The translations under genes and the position numbers were made by a program. From positions 34,238 through 98,237 of the forward strand of contig JBGCGH010000023.1 in NCBI GenBank assembly GCA_045110695.1: 64,000 nt of DNA. The letters run 5' to 3'. Below, piece by piece: positions 3,589-44,069 of the stretch. How positions within the stretch are numbered: the stretch's first letter is position 1; each line of letters begins with the position of its first letter. This DNA comes from Bdellovibrionales bacterium. Lineage in GTDB: Bacteria; Bdellovibrionota; Bdellovibrionia; Bdellovibrionales; UBA840. Under the pieces are notes generated by a model. The model made no database searches and was not told the DNA's origin. It was given only the letters and a program-made list of their open reading frames with translations.

Positions 3589-4122
3589 ATGAAATTTCTG
3601 CAGATTCTATTTACAATTGCGCTTCTTGGCGCTTGCTCGCACCATTCTCACAAACATCACTCGGAAATAGTAAAGATTCATAAAGACTGGGGAAACCTAA
3701 AAGAGGTTCGTAGTTATCATGACCATGTTTACATATCGGCTCAACCAAATGCTGAAGCAATCAAAAGCTTCAAAGATAGTGGCGGTGAAATTGTGATCAA
3801 TCTAAGAAACAAAAAAGAGAGAGGCTTCTTAAAGGACGAAAAGTCTATCGTAGAGTCTAATGGAATGAAATACTTTAACCTTCCGGTAAATGGCAAAGAT
3901 ATGTCTAAAACTCAGTTCAATAAAATAGAAGATATTATTGCTAGTAATCCCAAACAAAAAGTTCTACTCCATTGCTCCAGCGGAAACCGTGCAGCTTCTT
4001 GGTTTGCCTATCATGCTTGGAAAAAACATAAAGACAGCCCGGAAAAAGCCCTCGAAGTTGGAAGAAGTATGGGACTTACAAAAAAGAATCTCGAGCCCCA
4101 AATAATAAAAATGATGAAATAA
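3589..4122 (+). CDS. Lipoprotein with CX5R phosphatase-like domain (DUF442/PTP-like)
   Basis: Signal plus lipobox FTIALLGAC. Active-site-like HCSSGNRA (HCxxGxxR). AAGGA SD upstream. Confidence 0.65.
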   Translation: MKFLQILFTIALLGACSHHSHKHHSEIVKIHKDWGNLKEVRSYHDHVYISAQPNAEAIKSFKDSGGEIVINLRNKKERGFLKDEKSIVESNGMKYFNLPVNGKDMSKTQFNKIEDIIASNPKQKVLLHCSSGNRAASWFAYHAWKKHKDSPEKALEVGRSMGLTKKNLEPQIIKMMK

Positions 4123-16921: not shown

Positions 16922-17407
16922 ATGAGTCCAAGTATTGCCAAAGCGACTAGTGGTGCTGGTATCATTGTATTTCATCAGGAAAAAATCCTTCTTGTTCAAA
17001 TGAACTATGGACGTTTCAAGGGACATTGGATTATACCCGGCGGATCAGTAGACGAAGGAGAACATCCTGATGAGACCGCACTTAGAGAACTAAAAGAAGA
17101 GACGGGACTCGAAGGTAGAATCGATGGCCTACTGGCAGTTAGATACCGTCAGAAAAATCTAAAAAACAATACCTACTGGGTATTTTCTGGAAGCATACTG
17201 ACTAAGAATCCTGAGCAATCACTCCAGTGGCCAAAAGAAGAGCTAATAGAAGCAAGGTTTTGGACTTTAGATGATTGCATGAAAGATGATCTTGTTAGAC
17301 CACTAACCAAAGTATTCATTAACAAGTTTATCGATTCAAAAAACCTAGCGAAGAGCTATGAAATCCCAACAGACAAGGATCAAAACGACCGTATATACGG
17401 ATTATAG
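16922..17407 (+). CDS. NUDIX hydrolase
   Basis: Nudix box GGSVDEGEHPDETALRELKEETGL (Gx5Ex7REUxEExGU). Confidence 0.9.
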   Translation: MSPSIAKATSGAGIIVFHQEKILLVQMNYGRFKGHWIIPGGSVDEGEHPDETALRELKEETGLEGRIDGLLAVRYRQKNLKNNTYWVFSGSILTKNPEQSLQWPKEELIEARFWTLDDCMKDDLVRPLTKVFINKFIDSKNLAKSYEIPTDKDQNDRIYGL

Positions 17408-17477
17408 ACCTAATTCGGACTAAACCTTGCAGATTTTTCATTAATCAATTGATTATTTAATTAATTCAAACAAGTAT

Positions 17478-17506
17478 TTGATAAATCACCTTAGGCGACC
17501 TATAAA
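17478..17506 (+). promoter_or_regulatory. Sigma70-type promoter of the G-tract RNA
   Basis: TTGATA (17478-17483), exactly 17 nt spacer, TATAAA (17501-17506). Confidence 0.5.
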
Positions 17507-17512
17507 ACAAAT

Positions 17513-17619
17513 GTCTCGACGGGGGGATAAGAGCTGGGGGGCTCTTTAGCAGATTTCGGGGGGAATACTGCTAGTTTAAGGGGGGTATAGGGGCCAACGA
17601 GAGTTGGCCCTCTTTTTTT
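17513..17619 (+). ncRNA. Candidate small RNA with four G6 tracts (unrecognised family)
   Basis: Bounded by the promoter above and an intrinsic terminator. G6 tracts at 17521-26, 17536-41, 17558-63 and 17580-85. Hairpins at 17529-17546 (loop UGGGGG) and 17549-17571 (loop UCGGGGGG). The only ORF is a 12-codon one that would have to be leaderless. Confidence 0.45.
17591..17619 (+). terminator. Rho-independent terminator
   Basis: GGGCCAAC-GAGA-GTTGGCCC (8-bp stem, GNRA-type loop) followed by TCTTTTTTT. Confidence 0.7.
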
Positions 17620-17629
17620 GAACACTCAT

Positions 17630-17676
17630 TTGAGAAAGTTGAACTTTTGTGCTATTATTGTCCGAAACAGGAACAA
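17630..17676 (+). promoter_or_regulatory. Promoter and operator-like inverted repeat of the TetR-GNAT operon
   Basis: TTGAGA (17630-35), 17 nt spacer, TATTAT (17653-58). Imperfect inverted repeat TTGTCC-gaaaca-GGAACAA (17658-17676) overlaps the -10/+1 region. Confidence 0.45.
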
Positions 17677-17700
17677 TACCCCCGAATATCGGAGCCCCTT

Positions 17701-18336
17701 ATGGCCCGCAAGGCGCATAAAACAACAGATCAAACCCGAGCTCAATTGATTGAGGCTGGAAAAGCTCTTTTCTCAGAAAAAGGTTTCGATGGAACTACTG
17801 TAAAAGAAATCGCAAATGCTGCGGGAGTAAATATCAGCCTAATAAGCTACCATTTTGACGGTAAAGAAAAGTTATACAGAGAATGCGTTGGCGACCACGG
17901 TGGCAAACTCTTAGAAATGGCTAAACGAATCTTAACTCATTGTAAATCAGAAGAAGAATTTAAAATCAGATTAAGAATGTTTATTGATGAGTGCTTTATG
18001 GATTTTGTAGAAGACCCTGAGTTGTCTTTGATGGCTTTCAGAGAGGCTGAGCAGATGAACCAACAAAACGATCCTGTTCTTCATGCAAACTACATCCGGT
18101 TTTTTGAGAAGATCATTGAGTTCATAAAAGTGGGTCAAAGTAATGGAATCGCCCAAACTGAAATTGATCCTTACATCTCCGCCGGAGTATTATTTGGTGG
18201 CCTCAGTCATTTTATAAAAATGAATAAAATTAGAGAAACCTACTTCAAGAAATCTATAATGGAAGATGCTACTAGAAACCAGGCCGCTGAGCATATAACT
18301 AAAATTTTTCTAGAAGGCGTACTTATCAAGGCTTAA
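17701..18336 (+). CDS. TetR/AcrR family transcriptional regulator
   Basis: N-terminal HTH: RAQLIEAGKALFSEKGFDGTTVKEIANAAGVNISLISYHFDGKEKLY. Start at ATG 17701 (GGAG 7 nt upstream) rather than the track start at 17647. Confidence 0.9.
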   Translation: MARKAHKTTDQTRAQLIEAGKALFSEKGFDGTTVKEIANAAGVNISLISYHFDGKEKLYRECVGDHGGKLLEMAKRILTHCKSEEEFKIRLRMFIDECFMDFVEDPELSLMAFREAEQMNQQNDPVLHANYIRFFEKIIEFIKVGQSNGIAQTEIDPYISAGVLFGGLSHFIKMNKIRETYFKKSIMEDATRNQAAEHITKIFLEGVLIKA

Positions 18337-18337
18337 A

Positions 18338-18772
18338 ATGGATATAAAAGAAATTACAGCCCAAGAAACTCATGCACTAAGGCTCGAAGTACTAAGACCA
18401 GGCGGAAAAAAATCTGATGTTGAATACGCCGAAGATGAAACCTTAGGAAGTTTTCACCTAGGCGCCTACAATAAGTCTCAACTCATTGGTATTGCTTCTT
18501 TTTTTCCAGAAAACTATCATCTATTTCCAACGGAAAAATGCTTCAGATTAAGAGGTATGGCTAGCTCTCCCAGACTTAAAGTTCCCGGTACTGGCACAAA
18601 ATTAATCCTGACGGCAGTTGAATTAATTAGAGAAAAGAAGGGAGATCTACTTTGGTGTAATGCTAGAGAGGTAGCTTTTCCTTTTTATGAGAAGGTGGGA
18701 TTTTCCTACCTCGGGCCTATGTTTGATATCCCTAAAATTGGGCCACACAAAGTAATGTATCGAAAGCTTTGA
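18338..18772 (+). CDS. GNAT family N-acetyltransferase
   Basis: 144 aa. RLRGMASSPRLKVPGTGTKLI (Q/RxxGxG/A-type acetyl-CoA loop) and C-terminal FYEKVGF. Starts 1 nt after the TetR stop. Confidence 0.8.
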   Translation: MDIKEITAQETHALRLEVLRPGGKKSDVEYAEDETLGSFHLGAYNKSQLIGIASFFPENYHLFPTEKCFRLRGMASSPRLKVPGTGTKLILTAVELIREKKGDLLWCNAREVAFPFYEKVGFSYLGPMFDIPKIGPHKVMYRKL

Positions 18773-26268: not shown

Positions 26269-27147
26269 TCAAAGAACCTTCTTTTTACACTCGGCAATCA
26301 AATGCTTTTTAAACAACTGAAATCTTTTTGGCATAAGGGCGTTGTCTACATAGATTAAATACATTTTAGATTTGAGTTCCTTTTCACTAGCCACCCTAAG
26401 CTCTTTTCTTTTAATGGCCTTAGCAACACTAAAATATGGTAAGACGGCATAGTAGTTAGAATCTACCAAGGCCTCGATCATAGATTTATGAGAGTTTACT
26501 ACTATATGACGATTGATTTTAGAAATGGAAGATTTCTTAAAATACTTGTGTATGTAGTTAACAAGTAGGCCATCATCTAAAGAGTAGGCCACAAACTTTG
26601 CGTCACCTATATCAACGAGGGGCTTCTTGTTTGTTACGCTAGTCACTAAAACAGACTTCTCGGTTAGAATCTCATAGGATCTCAAGTTTTCTTGGTCCAC
26701 CAACTCATTAACAATTCCAAAATCTAAATTTCCTGTTTTTACTTTGTCGATAATATTATCGGGAGAGGTATATAACATTTTTAAATCAACATCTGGATAC
26801 AGCTTATTAAAGCCCAAAACTTTTTCCATAATTGAAAACTGACCTACTTCACCCAAACAGCCCATCCCCAGTTGGCCCTTTACTTCATCTGTACGGTCTT
26901 TTGTAATATGCATGGTGGTTTGTAGTTCTTTTATCAGGGGTGCCACTCGTCTCTTAAAAGCTACTCCCTCTTCCGTTAGGTGAACTTTATGCTTATCCCT
27001 AATAAATAACTTAGTGCCTAACTGCTCTTCTAGAAGTTTGATTTGCCTAGAGATACTAGGTTGGGATACAGAGAAATCTTTTGCCGTTTCTGTGAAACTC
27101 ATGGTCTCTGAAAGGCTTGTAAAACACTCAAGATAATTAAGATTCAT
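26269..27147 (-). CDS. LysR family transcriptional regulator
   Basis: N-terminal wHTH: MNLNYLECFTSLSETMSFTETAKDFSVSQPSISRQIKLLEEQLGTKLF. 292 aa. SD is a G6 tract (GGGGGGAACTT-ATG). Confidence 0.9.
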   Translation of the reverse strand: MNLNYLECFTSLSETMSFTETAKDFSVSQPSISRQIKLLEEQLGTKLFIRDKHKVHLTEEGVAFKRRVAPLIKELQTTMHITKDRTDEVKGQLGMGCLGEVGQFSIMEKVLGFNKLYPDVDLKMLYTSPDNIIDKVKTGNLDFGIVNELVDQENLRSYEILTEKSVLVTSVTNKKPLVDIGDAKFVAYSLDDGLLVNYIHKYFKKSSISKINRHIVVNSHKSMIEALVDSNYYAVLPYFSVAKAIKRKELRVASEKELKSKMYLIYVDNALMPKRFQLFKKHLIAECKKKVL

Positions 27148-27210
27148 AAGTTCCCCCCAATGGGATTATGCCGATTTGTTTAAACGCAGAGGATGTATAA
27201 AAACAAAATC

Positions 27211-38663: not shown

Positions 38664-38768
38664 AAGTCAGGTCCCATACAATATTTGGCTCGCGGACTCC
38701 GTCAGATCTGGAAGGAAGCAGCGGCAGTGAGTTCAGTATGTGCTGTGGGGTGCCTGGCACTTTTTTTT
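38664..38768 (+). ncRNA. ffs: Signal recognition particle RNA (small 4.5S type)
   Basis: Contains the universally conserved domain IV core GTCAGATCTGGAAGGAAGCAGCGGCAG (compare E. coli GUCAGGUCCGGAAGGAAGCAGCC). GGACTC/GAGTTC and flanking segments pair. Ends in a T8 run. Sits immediately upstream of dnaX as in many bacteria. Ends are approximate. Confidence 0.8.
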
Positions 38769-42446: not shown

Positions 42447-42815
42447 TCATAGATTACCAGCACAGAAGACTTTTCCACCGTCCGTTGAGCTTTGCTCGTG
42501 TATATCAATTAAAATCTCATAATTCTTAGATATAGGCGCACTCAAACTAAAAGCCTCTGTGAAGTCCAGCTCCTCTGAACTCAAGGTACCTGAGAATACA
42601 AACTGATTTCCACCCATGATTTTTAAAACAGAATTTAACTCAAACTCTCCAAAGTTTTCGGAGTAGGAAATCTCTCGATACAATTTTGTCTGAAACTCTA
42701 CTTTTGAGCTCGCTTTCACTTCTCCCTCTGAGCCAAACAAGGTTATCTCACACACAACACCGGCATGAAGAATACTTGTAAAGAATAAAAATATTGAGAA
42801 AATGATTTGCTTCAT
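42447..42815 (-). CDS. Small secreted two-Cys protein (tandem pair, member 2)
   Basis: Signal MKQIIFSIFLFFTSILHAG. Mature protein starts VVCEIT and ends VFCAGNL. G6 SD (GGGGGGCCCT-ATG). Confidence 0.5.
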   Translation of the reverse strand: MKQIIFSIFLFFTSILHAGVVCEITLFGSEGEVKASSKVEFQTKLYREISYSENFGEFELNSVLKIMGGNQFVFSGTLSSEELDFTEAFSLSAPISKNYEILIDIHEQSSTDGGKVFCAGNL

Positions 42816-43124
42816 AGGGCCCCCCGACGGTTATTGAAGATAGGGGGACTCTATCTAAATATGAATACCTCTTCGACCAAAAAATCTAGAGGAGATAAAT
42901 TTATAGTATTTTCACAATGAATACCGGCATATATTTACTATTTTATGCAATCCCATAACTAGTATTTATTTTAACACAAAGAAAAGCTCCCTATCTGCCC
43001 CTAATTATCGATCTATTGGGAAAAGATAAATCAGAAGTTTTGGGTGTCTGTAGTCTCGGAAATTGCGTATAATCTACAGTTGCCCAACGTGACATCAGAT
43101 TAAAACTGTTTTAGTCTCCCCTCC

Positions 43125-44069
43125 ATGAAAAGTATTGAAGAAAGAATAGAAGATCTAAAGCGCGAAAAAAATGCCGTAATTCTAGCTCACTACTATGAAG
43201 ACGGGGAAATTCAAGATATCGCTGATGAGGTGGGAGACAGCCTATTCTTGGCTCAAAAAGGGGCTGATAGCACTGCAGACGTTATACTACTAGCTGGCGT
43301 CGTATTTATGGGCGAAAGCGTAAAACTGCTTAGTCCTGAGAAAACAGTACTAGTTCCTGACCTTAAAGCTGGTTGCTCCCTTGTAGATAGTAGTCCTGCA
43401 AAAGAATATGCGGCCTGGAAAGCCAACAAGCCCGATTCAGTTCTAATTAGCTATATCAACTGTAGCGCTGAGGCAAAGGCCGTAAGCGATCTAATTTGCA
43501 CATCAAGTAATGCGGAAAAAATTGTTAATGCTGTCCCTGAATCTAAAAAAATACTCTTTGGGCCTGACAGAAACCTAGGTAATTTTCTAGCTAAAAAACT
43601 CAATCGCGAAATGGAAATGTGGCCAGGAAGCTGCGAAGTACATATGTTATTCCACGCCAAGGAACTCTTCAAATTAACACAGCAACACCAAGATGCCGTA
43701 GTTATTGCCCACCCTGAATGTGAACCTGAAGTATTGCAGTATGCCGATGTAGTGGGATCGACCTCTAGACTATTAAAAGAAGTAAGAGAAAACCCTGCAA
43801 AGAAGTTTATTGTCGCAACTGAGGATGGAATCTTTCACCAAATGAAAAAAGATAGACCAGATGCAGAGCTCATCCAAGCGCCCAATGCCGATGGTAATTG
43901 CGGATGTAATCAGTGTCCTTATATGAAATTAAATACTTTGGAAAAAATAGAGCAAGCATTGATTCATTTAAGTCCGACTGTAAAAATCGATGAGGCGATT
44001 ATGGATCGAGCTAGACTACCATTGGATAGAATGATGAAATTGAGCCGCGGCGAGACCATCGAACTGTAA
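43125..44069 (+). CDS. nadA: Quinolinate synthase
   Basis: NAVILAHYYEDGEIQDIADEVGDS, SYINCSAE, IAHPEC, CGCNQCPYMK. 314 aa. Confidence 0.95.
   Translation: MKSIEERIEDLKREKNAVILAHYYEDGEIQDIADEVGDSLFLAQKGADSTADVILLAGVVFMGESVKLLSPEKTVLVPDLKAGCSLVDSSPAKEYAAWKANKPDSVLISYINCSAEAKAVSDLICTSSNAEKIVNAVPESKKILFGPDRNLGNFLAKKLNREMEMWPGSCEVHMLFHAKELFKLTQQHQDAVVIAHPECEPEVLQYADVVGSTSRLLKEVRENPAKKFIVATEDGIFHQMKKDRPDAELIQAPNADGNCGCNQCPYMKLNTLEKIEQALIHLSPTVKIDEAIMDRARLPLDRMMKLSRGETIEL

Follow-up and report, generated by a model that had tools for sequence, protein, structure and literature searches.

The window, a 64-kb stretch of DNA from an uncultured, Bdellovibrio-like member of the Bdellovibrionales, contains three plus-strand genes that frame the intergenic region described here. 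Upstream lies a NUDIX hydrolase gene (16922–17407; Pfam NUDIX, 2e-19), and downstream lies tetR (17701–18336), which encodes a TetR/AcrR family repressor (Pfam TetR_N, 8e-16) and forms an operon with a GNAT acetyltransferase gene of the glyphosate N-acetyltransferase (GAT) family (18338–18772). The TetR protein shares 100% identity with a protein from a Bdellovibrionales MAG, and its nearest solved structure is that of HlyIIR. The acetyltransferase matches PDB entry 2bsw over its full length (E = 8.9e-31), as well as Pfam Acetyltransf_1. The NUDIX gene is the syntenic upstream neighbour in all loci, which does not imply membership of the same transcription unit. Between NUDIX and tetR, a non-coding RNA of ~105–109 nt is predicted on the plus strand (17511–17619). 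Its 5' end is estimated to within a few nucleotides and its 3' end corresponds to the U-run of a terminator.

The most conspicuous feature of this RNA is a set of four GGGGGG tracts within 65 nt (17521–17585), located on the plus strand at 17521–26, 17536–41, 17558–63 and 17580–85, with a promoter-like site ahead of them and a strong intrinsic terminator behind. Both strands of the 64-kb window together contain seven GGGGGG tracts, fewer than the 13.7 expected from shuffles; hence four of them inside 65 nt represent a strong local cluster. It is the sole site in the window with at least three runs of four or more G per 120 nt. Scans for G-run clusters and for the motif found no second copy of the element in 730 kb comprising the window and the other loci.

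The predicted fold of the RNA is unusually stable (z = −4.64), and none of 200 shuffled sequences was as stable. Tract 1 (17521–17526) may form a weak 5' hairpin with an upstream GUCUC, with a probability of being unpaired of 0.49. Tract 2 is held in the loop of a central hairpin, AAGAGC-UGGGGG-GCUCUU (17529–17546), and tract 3 in a second hairpin (17548–17572) that is confined to the lineage of the window. Tract 4 (17580–17585) occupies the linker directly 5' of the terminal hairpin, a position that carries a run of six or seven G family-wide; in the minimum free energy fold it pairs with the U-run (probability unpaired 0.19). Across all seven sequence variants described below, the central G run is unpaired with a probability of 0.59–0.68 and the linker runs with 0.06–0.63. 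The folding energies also discriminate between the strands. The plus-strand fold is better than the minus-strand fold by 12 kcal/mol in the window and by 6–22 kcal/mol across all variants, with 2–12 G·U pairs per variant on the plus strand versus 0–1 on the minus strand.

No conserved open reading frame was found on either strand among the variants, and the possibility of a small conserved ORF was rejected because neither a start nor a frame is conserved. Rfam searches with the window region and one relative (L003) returned no family match at the gathering score, and with permissive filters no CsrB, RsmY or RsmZ match even at E < 10. An earlier interpretation of this DNA, referred to below as the sequence-only reading, had proposed a structured, non-coding plus-strand RNA outside known families, and the fold, the lack of a conserved ORF and the absence of an Rfam match bear this out. 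The G6 tracts, hairpins, terminator, promoter and complementary and C4 stretches that it described are all present where it placed them. Both G-loop hairpins fold as it claimed, the second extending over 17548–72 rather than 17549–71. As judged from sequence comparison, the conserved ~105-nt non-coding RNA ahead of the tetR-acetyltransferase operon is real and is a new, uncatalogued RNA family.

The putative promoter of the RNA, P1 (17478–17506, plus strand), consists of a −35 box TTGATA (17478–83), a 17-nt spacer and a −10 box TATAAA (17501–06), and transcription of the RNA presumably starts near it. The promoter scanner did not call P1 because its −10 hexamer lacks the final T, a base that none of the seven variants has. 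All of them keep the −35/operator block. Overlapping the −35 box is the palindrome TCAAACAAGTATTTGA (17466–17481), a putative operator of the TetR family with the consensus TCAAA-N6-TTTGA, which was defined with 79 distant TetR loci from a metagenome search. This element occurs once in the 64-kb window, 235 nt upstream of tetR. Of 89 TetR loci, 36 have it no more than 300 nt ahead of tetR, and just two copies occur elsewhere in 651 kb. Its distance from tetR is 13–73 nt in 29 distant loci without the RNA versus 221–253 nt in six RNA-bearing loci. The palindrome is a probable binding site for TetR itself, and the RNA would share its promoter with the downstream operon. With the operator placed on that promoter, the RNA is no orphan, and this part of the sequence-only reading, which had set the RNA apart from the TetR leader, is not supported. 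The orthologous locus L097 points the same way, as it is devoid of tetR, operator and RNA, all three together.

Termination is predicted at the terminal hairpin with its U7 run (17590–17619, plus strand), where the terminator scanner matched a hairpin at 17590–17611. The stem comprises nine pairs, six of them G-C, closed by a GAGA loop, with a calculated energy of −16.9 kcal/mol. A U-run after the terminal hairpin is kept in the window, L013 and L095. It is absent from L003, L007, L004 and L093, where the 10 nt after the hairpin contain two or three T; in these four variants the RNA would therefore be co-transcribed with tetR. U-run terminators were found on the plus strand only. Downstream of the terminator in the window, a putative second promoter for tetR-GNAT, P2 (17630–17658, plus strand), has the form TTGAGA-17-TATTAT preceded by TG and was called by the scanner with 10 of 12 matches. 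The scanner called no equivalent in L003, L007, L004 or L013 and a marginal one (9/12) in L093. Inspection of the conserved spacer of the relatives for a second promoter or an alternative sigma site revealed no consistent spacing, and the scanner found no confident site there. Four of the seven variants thus have neither a U-run nor a confident second promoter, which again argues against an orphan gene. The sequence-only reading had also assigned tetR its own promoter and operator at 17630–76; the putative promoter stands (17630–58) but the operator does not, since the only copy of the family palindrome is that at 17466–81.

Seven sequence variants occupy the same position between NUDIX and tetR-GNAT, namely the window and six related metagenomic Bdellovibrionota loci (L003, L007, L004, L093, L013 and L095). 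A TetR search of genome contigs gave two distant matches and no relatives, and a search of metagenome contigs with a TetR alignment yielded one further close locus, L013 (from the same organism as L009). The variants share the G runs and the terminal hairpin, and the remaining sequence has diverged. The relatives contain three to five G runs of 4–7 nt in arrangements that differ from that of the window, and the four-tract layout is specific to the window. The loop C-UGGGGG-G of the central hairpin is invariant, and four of the six pairs in its stem show compensatory changes. In this hairpin 90% of cells are paired, as compared with 27–53% when the partner is slid. The nucleotides that flank the runs are conserved as well, with C-U before and W-A after. 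Between L013 and L095 the intergenic DNA is ~95% identical versus 84.5% for tetR, and so exceeds coding conservation. Orthologous intergenic regions thus retain both the G tracts and the hairpin with its G loop, the outcome that the sequence-only reading had proposed to look for. These comparisons establish that the RNA exists, is conserved and structured, reads on the plus strand and lies behind the operator.

Other elements align less consistently. Since one MAFFT alignment places the second hairpin as an insertion and another aligns it onto the central hairpin, its homology is ambiguous, and the variable terminal hairpin and the window-specific hairpin are likewise placed inconsistently by MAFFT. 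No conserved multi-helix core was seen among the variants. A spacer block, GCAnCTTAG..., is highly conserved between the RNA and tetR, a feature for which the leader model favoured below does not account. RNAalifold pairs the G loop with this block, with energies no better than those of shuffles.

Several sequences in the window could in principle pair with the G runs or resemble them. Within the translation-initiation region of tetR (17679–17698, plus strand), a C5 anti-SD (17679–83) can pair with the GGAG Shine-Dalgarno (SD) sequence (17691–94), which is followed by a C4 stretch (17695–98) just before the ATG. For four relatives, the leader is predicted to form a similar hairpin between a pyrimidine-rich anti-SD and the SD, and one can be read directly in the L093 sequence. 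A role in cis (an 'anti-anti-SD') was also considered, whereby the G runs and the tetR SD would be rivals for pairing with the pyrimidine anti-SD. The idea is coherent, but as the complementarity does not exceed the shuffled level in most variants, it has no specific support, and the anti-SD is retained only as one possible partner. Elsewhere, two minus-strand genes have G6 ahead of their ATG (27147 and 42815), which supports the earlier suggestion that this hexamer serves as a Shine-Dalgarno sequence in the genome. The C-rich stretch noted next to the nadA start codon is also present, with CTCCCCTCC (43116–24) abutting the ATG.

The explanation that we favour, tentatively and with a probability that falls slightly short of even, is that the RNA is a TetR-operated 5' leader, or a prematurely terminated RNA, that exposes SD-like G runs as a pyrimidine-binding decoy. 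P1, carrying TetR's own operator, would drive the plus-strand RNA, so that departure of TetR from the operator would switch the leader module on. Being transcribed from a promoter that bears this operator, the RNA would constitute the 5' leader module of tetR-GNAT. An intrinsic terminator would end the leader in the window, L013 and L095, and for this reason most transcripts are expected to stop there as a ~105-nt RNA; in the window tetR-GNAT would additionally be served by the second promoter. In the four lineages that lack a U-run, the module would form the front of a ~200-nt tetR 5' UTR. In the window, the strong terminator together with the strong P2 is equally compatible with a leader and with a free-standing sRNA.

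The functional parts of such a leader would be the G runs, of which the C-UGGGGG-G hairpin loop always presents one and the linkers hold the rest. These runs look like strong Shine-Dalgarno sequences, as which G6 serves in this genome. We infer that the exposed runs would most likely base-pair with pyrimidine-rich, anti-SD-like sequences, as G can pair with U as well as with C. Their partner might reside in the same mRNA or act in trans, the candidates being C/U-rich sRNAs, mRNA leaders and the 3' end of 16S rRNA. Through such pairing, translation or stability would come to depend on the signal sensed by TetR. A bolder form of this proposal, which we regard as improbable, is that the RNA is a multi-SD decoy freed when TetR senses its ligand and titrating anti-SD-like pyrimidine tracts, or else a hairpin/G-quadruplex switch that gates termination. 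Among the targets of such a decoy might be the 3' end of 16S rRNA or C-rich leaders that lack an SD, for example that of nadA.

Several other explanations were weighed against a TetR-operated leader. The RNA could be a sponge sRNA in the manner of RosA or RsaI, free-standing and acting in trans, whose G runs sequester C-rich sRNAs or the C/U-rich leaders of mRNAs from elsewhere in the genome, with TetR as a merely adjacent transcription factor. This is a plausible but unlikely alternative, to which the strong terminator, the separate P2 and the location of the G runs in a loop and linkers would be well suited. It has a precedent in the G-rich regions of RsaI (10.1101/278127) and RosA (PMC8216469) that bind C-rich sRNAs, and potential targets in C-rich translation starts of the window, such as that of nadA and a C5 upstream of the gene at 42815. 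However, in the four variants that lack both a U-run and a confident second promoter the RNA would be part of the tetR mRNA unless processed. In addition, the 64-kb window contains no C-rich sRNA candidate, its sole cluster of C4 or longer runs being inside an ORF, and the best window-wide predicted target sites lie mostly inside ORFs rather than at translation starts. The sequence-only reading had proposed, among other modes of action, an orphan sRNA that controls TetR-GNAT translation specifically through one loop, UUCGGGGG (17555–62), which is an exact 8-nt complement of CCCCCGAA (17679–86) just 5' of the tetR SD. We consider this very doubtful. The duplex energy of −16.7 to −19.5 kcal/mol falls within about the top 1% of 30-nt windows, and the tetR SD can be sequestered by C5, but specificity of the pairing is not supported. 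Duplexes were evaluated tract by tract against dinucleotide shuffles, in place of a whole-RNA RNAduplex calculation that was dominated by long interior loops. In the window the pairing of a G tract with the tetR ribosome binding site reached p = 0.02–0.035 before correction for five tracts, which is marginal, and among the relatives p was 0.11–0.9 in five of six, one L095 tract giving 0.03. Moreover, the tetR site is not among the best 25 predicted target sites in the window, the hairpin that bears UUCGGGGG is found in the window only, and the operator lies on the promoter of the RNA.

A protein sponge of the CsrB/RsmZ type, in which the G runs, several of them ending in GGA, titrate a G-specific RNA-binding protein, CsrA-like or of another type, is equally hard to credit. 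Inspection of the sequences shows that six of the seven variants have GGGGGGAA or GGGGGGAU as their linker run and that in five the first run closes with GGA, and repeated motifs in a loop and linkers are RsmZ-like. Against this, GGA never occurs in the sole hairpin loop common to all variants, C-UGGGGG-G with U or C after it, each RNA has only about two GGA motifs, and the Rfam searches found no relative of CsrB, RsmY or RsmZ even at the permissive threshold. The CsrB/RsmZ-like layout of the sequence-only reading is accordingly not supported, and its four-tract arrangement is peculiar to the window. In single contigs, a sample too small to be informative, tblastn with CsrA against the window and its seven closest related loci (L003, L004, L007, L013, L093, L095 and L097) gave no match, and a search for Hfq likewise gave none. 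A structural switch or sensor is also rather improbable; here an RNA G-quadruplex, or alternative pairing with a 5' pyrimidine element, would compete with the hairpins, and termination, read-through or translation would be set by K+, temperature or a ligand. All seven variants possess at least four runs of three or more G, their best 60-nt G4Hunter scores are 1.0–1.5, the terminator directly follows a G run in three of them, and a 5' CUCCC element pairs alternatively with G runs in minimum free energy folds. The spacers between runs are nevertheless long (9–30 nt), the nucleotides flanking the runs are conserved although a quadruplex has no need of them, and no conserved antiterminator can be defined across the variants. 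Display in a loop is favoured over a quadruplex because the stem of the hairpin that contains the central run covaries. Least credible of all, and very remote, is the absence of any RNA of its own, such that the region is the 3' UTR of NUDIX, a C-rich sRNA encoded on the minus strand, or a feature that arose by chance or acts at the DNA level. No obvious terminator separates the NUDIX stop (17407) from the RNA, the minus strand would bear C6 loops resembling known C-rich sRNAs, and a terminator-like call was made on that strand at the 5' hairpin of L003 and L007. Yet the element is missing from NUDIX loci without tetR, and the energies, the G·U pairs and the U-run terminators all assign the RNA to the plus strand. 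Chance is excluded by the covariation together with conservation above the coding level.

Comparison with established systems helps to delineate the RNA. STAB-SD 5' mRNA stabilisers, as in B. thuringiensis cryIIIA, are reportedly SD-like 5' UTR sequences distant from the start codon that are thought to bind the 16S 3' end; they consist of one GAAAGGAGG element and belong to Gram-positive bacteria with RNase J. The CsrB/RsmY/RsmZ RNAs are defined by the motif GGA (ANGGA) in most loops. Like them, the G-run RNA displays a repeated short purine motif in loops and inter-hairpin linkers and has a terminator at its end, but they are activated by GacA/UvrY and the G-run RNA is associated with a TetR operator. 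In S. aureus, the G-tracks of RsaI pair with C-rich regions of other RNAs (10.1101/278127), and in B. subtilis the G-rich regions (GRRs) of RosA bind C-rich sRNAs (PMC8216469). The resemblance lies in a short non-coding RNA with two or three exposed G-rich stretches, hairpin-borne or single-stranded, and in control by a single transcription factor. RosA and RsaI, however, are CcpA-controlled, free-standing genes of Firmicutes with G stretches of ~4 nt, as opposed to runs of six or seven G in the leader of a regulator's own operon, and the G-run RNA has no sequence or Rfam relationship to RosA or RsaI/RsaOG. In E. coli 3'-end mapping (PMC7815308), premature termination was shown experimentally to yield 5' UTR-derived RNAs, which have a promoter in common with the downstream gene and an intrinsic terminator before the ORF, and whose short stable products may act as sponges or regulators. 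For the G-run RNA, by contrast, termination is predicted from sequence, and in only three of seven variants. The tlpB leader of H. pylori also contains a homopolymeric G run that is read by pairing with a pyrimidine-rich RNA, in that instance the C/U-rich loop of RepG (PMC8295292). The tlpB leader carries a single, length-variable G repeat with no conserved hairpin display, in contrast to the three to five runs of conserved length in the G-run RNA.

If the favoured interpretation is correct, an uncatalogued RNA family would join the sparse list of regulatory RNAs from predatory Bdellovibrio-like bacteria. In an unusual arrangement, a one-component small-molecule sensor, TetR, would have as its first transcribed product an RNA with strong SD-like G runs rather than a protein, and a drug- or metabolite-sensing repressor would thereby be coupled to post-transcriptional control. 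Should the RNA act as a multi-SD decoy or a termination-gating switch, this would be a principle of regulation as yet undescribed in bacterial leaders. The family-wide operator TCAAA-N6-TTTGA offers a ready handle for in vitro work, and the natural variants with and without the terminator would make up an evolutionary series that connects a 5' UTR with a stand-alone sRNA.

The four GGGGGG tracts reported by the sequence-only reading at 17521-26, 17536-41, 17558-63 and 17580-85 (+) are present in the NUDIX-tetR gap and account for four of the window's seven such tracts, counted on both strands. At 38% G+C, this total is lower than the 13.7 expected from shuffles, and the four-tract site is the sole cluster in the window with at least three runs of G4 or longer in 120 nt. 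The proposed hairpins were reproduced, with a fold z-score of -4.64 for 17510-17622 against dinucleotide shuffles, and a terminator was called by the scanner at 17590-17611 with a run of U7. The promoter preceding the RNA (P1, TTGATA-17-TATAAA, 17478-17506) is readable in the sequence and uncalled by the promoter scanner, because a -10 box without the final T fails the scanner's rule. The second promoter, P2, located before tetR at 17630-58, was called (TTGAGA-17-TATTAT, with TG).

The TetR of the window is 100% identical to a protein of a Bdellovibrionales metagenome-assembled genome (MAG), the next closest sequences being only 50-60% identical. Contigs encoding TetR and NUDIX relatives, together with one metagenome locus, provided six further distinct intergenic versions, designated L003, L007, L004 (= L005, L006), L093, L013 (= L009) and L095, all with the gene order NUDIX, gap, tetR, GNAT. 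The G runs and the G-loop hairpin are kept in these orthologous gaps. On the + strand, every gap carries a 5' pyrimidine-rich hairpin, a first run of G4-6, a central hairpin with the loop invariably C-UGGGGG-G (17529-46 in the window, containing the second tract) and a linker run of G6-7; the GC-rich terminal hairpins have unrelated sequences and GNRA, UUCG or other loops. In the 18-column alignment of the central hairpin, four of the six pairs show compensatory changes, and 90% of the cells are paired; sliding the 3' partner lowers this to 27-53%. In each of the seven variants the + strand is the more stable fold, by 6-22 kcal/mol relative to its complement, and it contains 2-12 predicted G.U pairs per variant versus 0-1 on the - strand; read from the opposite strand, these pairs would become A.C mismatches. 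In close pairs the intergenic DNA is better conserved than the genes: L013 and L095 share ~95% of the intergenic sequence and 84.5% of tetR, and L003 and L007 are 100% identical over a 31-nt spacer block, compared with 81.9% for tetR and 67.5% for NUDIX. The variants share no conserved reading frame or start codon on either strand, and no second copy of the RNA was found in 730 kb comprising the window and the loci. Thus, the gap holds a + strand element that is conserved, structured and non-coding and whose G runs are invariant, a conservation that argues for function.

The window has a single copy of the palindrome TCAAA-N6-TTTGA, at 17466-17481, which overlaps the -35 box of P1. Of 89 TetR loci, 36 carry the palindrome within the 300 nt that precede the predicted tetR start, among them homologues of only 30-45% identity (for example, distant metagenomic loci L010 127-142, L094 about 203-218 and L025 1967-1982), and only two copies were found away from tetR in 651 kb. 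This recurrence upstream of tetR and rarity elsewhere point to the palindrome as the predicted operator of this TetR family. In 29 loci lacking the G-run RNA, the palindrome lies on the promoter -35 box and only 13-73 nt separate it from the start codon, implying autoregulated tetR genes with a short leader or none. The distance is 221-253 nt in the six RNA-bearing relatives and 235 nt in the window; thus the RNA fills the gap between the tetR operator-promoter and tetR. L004 has a second operator palindrome (3592-3607) right after the NUDIX stop, ~190 nt upstream of the promoter-proximal copy, and L003 has two adjacent ones (3741-56 and 3763-78). In the orthologous locus L097 (3001-4024), with the same downstream genes, NUDIX directly abuts GNAT, and tetR, operator and RNA are all missing, which shows that tetR and the RNA were gained or lost as one block. 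The RNA is also absent beside a NUDIX homologue in another context. The description of the RNA as an orphan is therefore not borne out: the predicted family operator overlaps its -35 box and tetR always accompanies it. Likewise, an operator had been placed at 17630-76, where an imperfect palindrome exists, but the predicted family operator is 17466-17481. That imperfect palindrome, TTGTCCGAAACAGGAACAA (17659-17677), lies just 3' of P2 and differs from the family operator; its possible roles are a 5' hairpin in the P2 transcript and a site for another regulator.

A U-run, which makes an intrinsic terminator of the terminal hairpin, follows it in the window, L013 and L095, and is absent in L003, L007, L004 and L093, which have 2-3 T in the 10 nt after the hairpin. 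A convincing second promoter is seen only in the window; the L093 match is marginal, the scanner found none in L003, L007, L004 and L013, and the TATAAT of L013 is not retained in L095. The missing U-runs and the restriction of a convincing P2 to the window suggest, at the level of sequence, that the family overall behaves as a 5' leader of tetR. In three lineages this leader would mostly end early as a short RNA, as presumably happens by termination in the window, whose lineage comes closest to a separate transcription unit. Where the terminator is lacking, processing in the A/U-rich stretch past the terminal hairpin could free a short RNA.

The RNA matches no Rfam family, an outcome that the sequence-only reading had named as support for novelty. 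At gathering thresholds, the whole window yielded only a bacterial small SRP RNA (65.7 bits, 38665-38762, +) and a tRNA with a long variable arm (2660-2747, -). A permissive scan of 17350-17750 gave nothing below E = 3.8, the best being a terminator-only match to FopS, and scans of the six relatives gave no match at the locus. We rate the RNA as a new family. The suggested likeness to CsrB/RsmZ finds no support in the invariant loop, which is without GGA; runs ending in GGA number about two per RNA. With respect to a G-quadruplex, every variant offers four or more runs of at least three G, and G4Hunter maxima are 1.0-1.5. Against this fold stand connecting loops of 9-30 nt, the placement of the central run in a hairpin that covaries, and the conservation of the nucleotides on either side of the runs. 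In function, the closest analogues are the G-rich sponge RNAs RosA and RsaI, the 5' UTR-derived terminated RNAs (PMC7815308) and the G-repeat leader read by RepG (PMC8295292). The G-run RNA belongs to none of these families.

Pairing with the tetR ribosome binding site was proposed as a mode of action. The complement exists: loop UUCGGGGG (17555-62) is exactly complementary to CCCCCGAA (17679-86). Specific pairing was not supported when the best duplex of each G run ± 4 nt with the region from the terminal hairpin to the tetR ATG was compared with 200 dinucleotide shuffles of that region, as two window tracts gave p = 0.02 and 0.035 (uncorrected) and the six relatives 0.03-0.9, mostly >0.1. 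The tetR site duplex (-18.4 to -19.5 kcal/mol) falls between the 1% (-17.7) and 0.1% (-22.0) quantiles for both window strands, and the site is outside the best 25 targets of the two-strand scan, most of which are inside ORFs. Because G can pair with U as well as with C, any anti-Shine-Dalgarno (SD) tract looks complementary, and the match gives no evidence for a specific target. In the folded tetR leaders of L003, L004, L007 and L013, a pyrimidine-rich anti-SD pairs with the SD to form a small hairpin, and this pairing is also readable in the window and L093. Given these hairpins and pairing no better than shuffles, competition of the G runs in cis for the anti-SD is possible but unsupported. 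RNAalifold of the four terminator-less leaders pairs the central G loop with the conserved spacer block UACUUCCAAG, showing only C/U exchanges opposite G and energies no better than shuffles. This spacer block, fully identical in L003 and L007 (TGCAACTTAGACTCTACTTCCAAGAAGCCCT, core GCAnCTTAG; 3950-3980 in both), also lies between terminal hairpin and tetR in L004, L093, L013 and L095, and no consistent promoter is readable in it.

Elsewhere in the window, GGGGGG indeed serves as an SD before the ATG of a LysR-type gene (start 27147, -; site 27147-27160) and of a 122-aa ORF (start 42815, -; site 42815-42850). The latter also has CCCCC 28 nt upstream (42843-47), and a hairpin formed with this tract could sequester the SD. 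The tract CTCCCCTCC abuts the ATG of nadA (43125-44069; Pfam NadA, 1e-110), as noted previously, and no purine-rich SD is present (43116-43127). Such a pyrimidine tract is odd in an SD-using genome and is conceivably a partner of G-run RNAs.

The GNAT is related over its full length to glyphosate N-acetyltransferase (2bsw, E = 8.9e-31), the nearest solved relative of the TetR is HlyIIR, and more distant TetR homologues lie upstream of RND efflux genes. Judged from these kinships, the unit looks like a small-molecule-sensing detoxification module. The G-run element lies directly behind the TetR operator-promoter, always with tetR; it would be transcribed from this promoter under TetR control, and its exposed SD-like G runs would act by pairing with pyrimidine-rich RNA.
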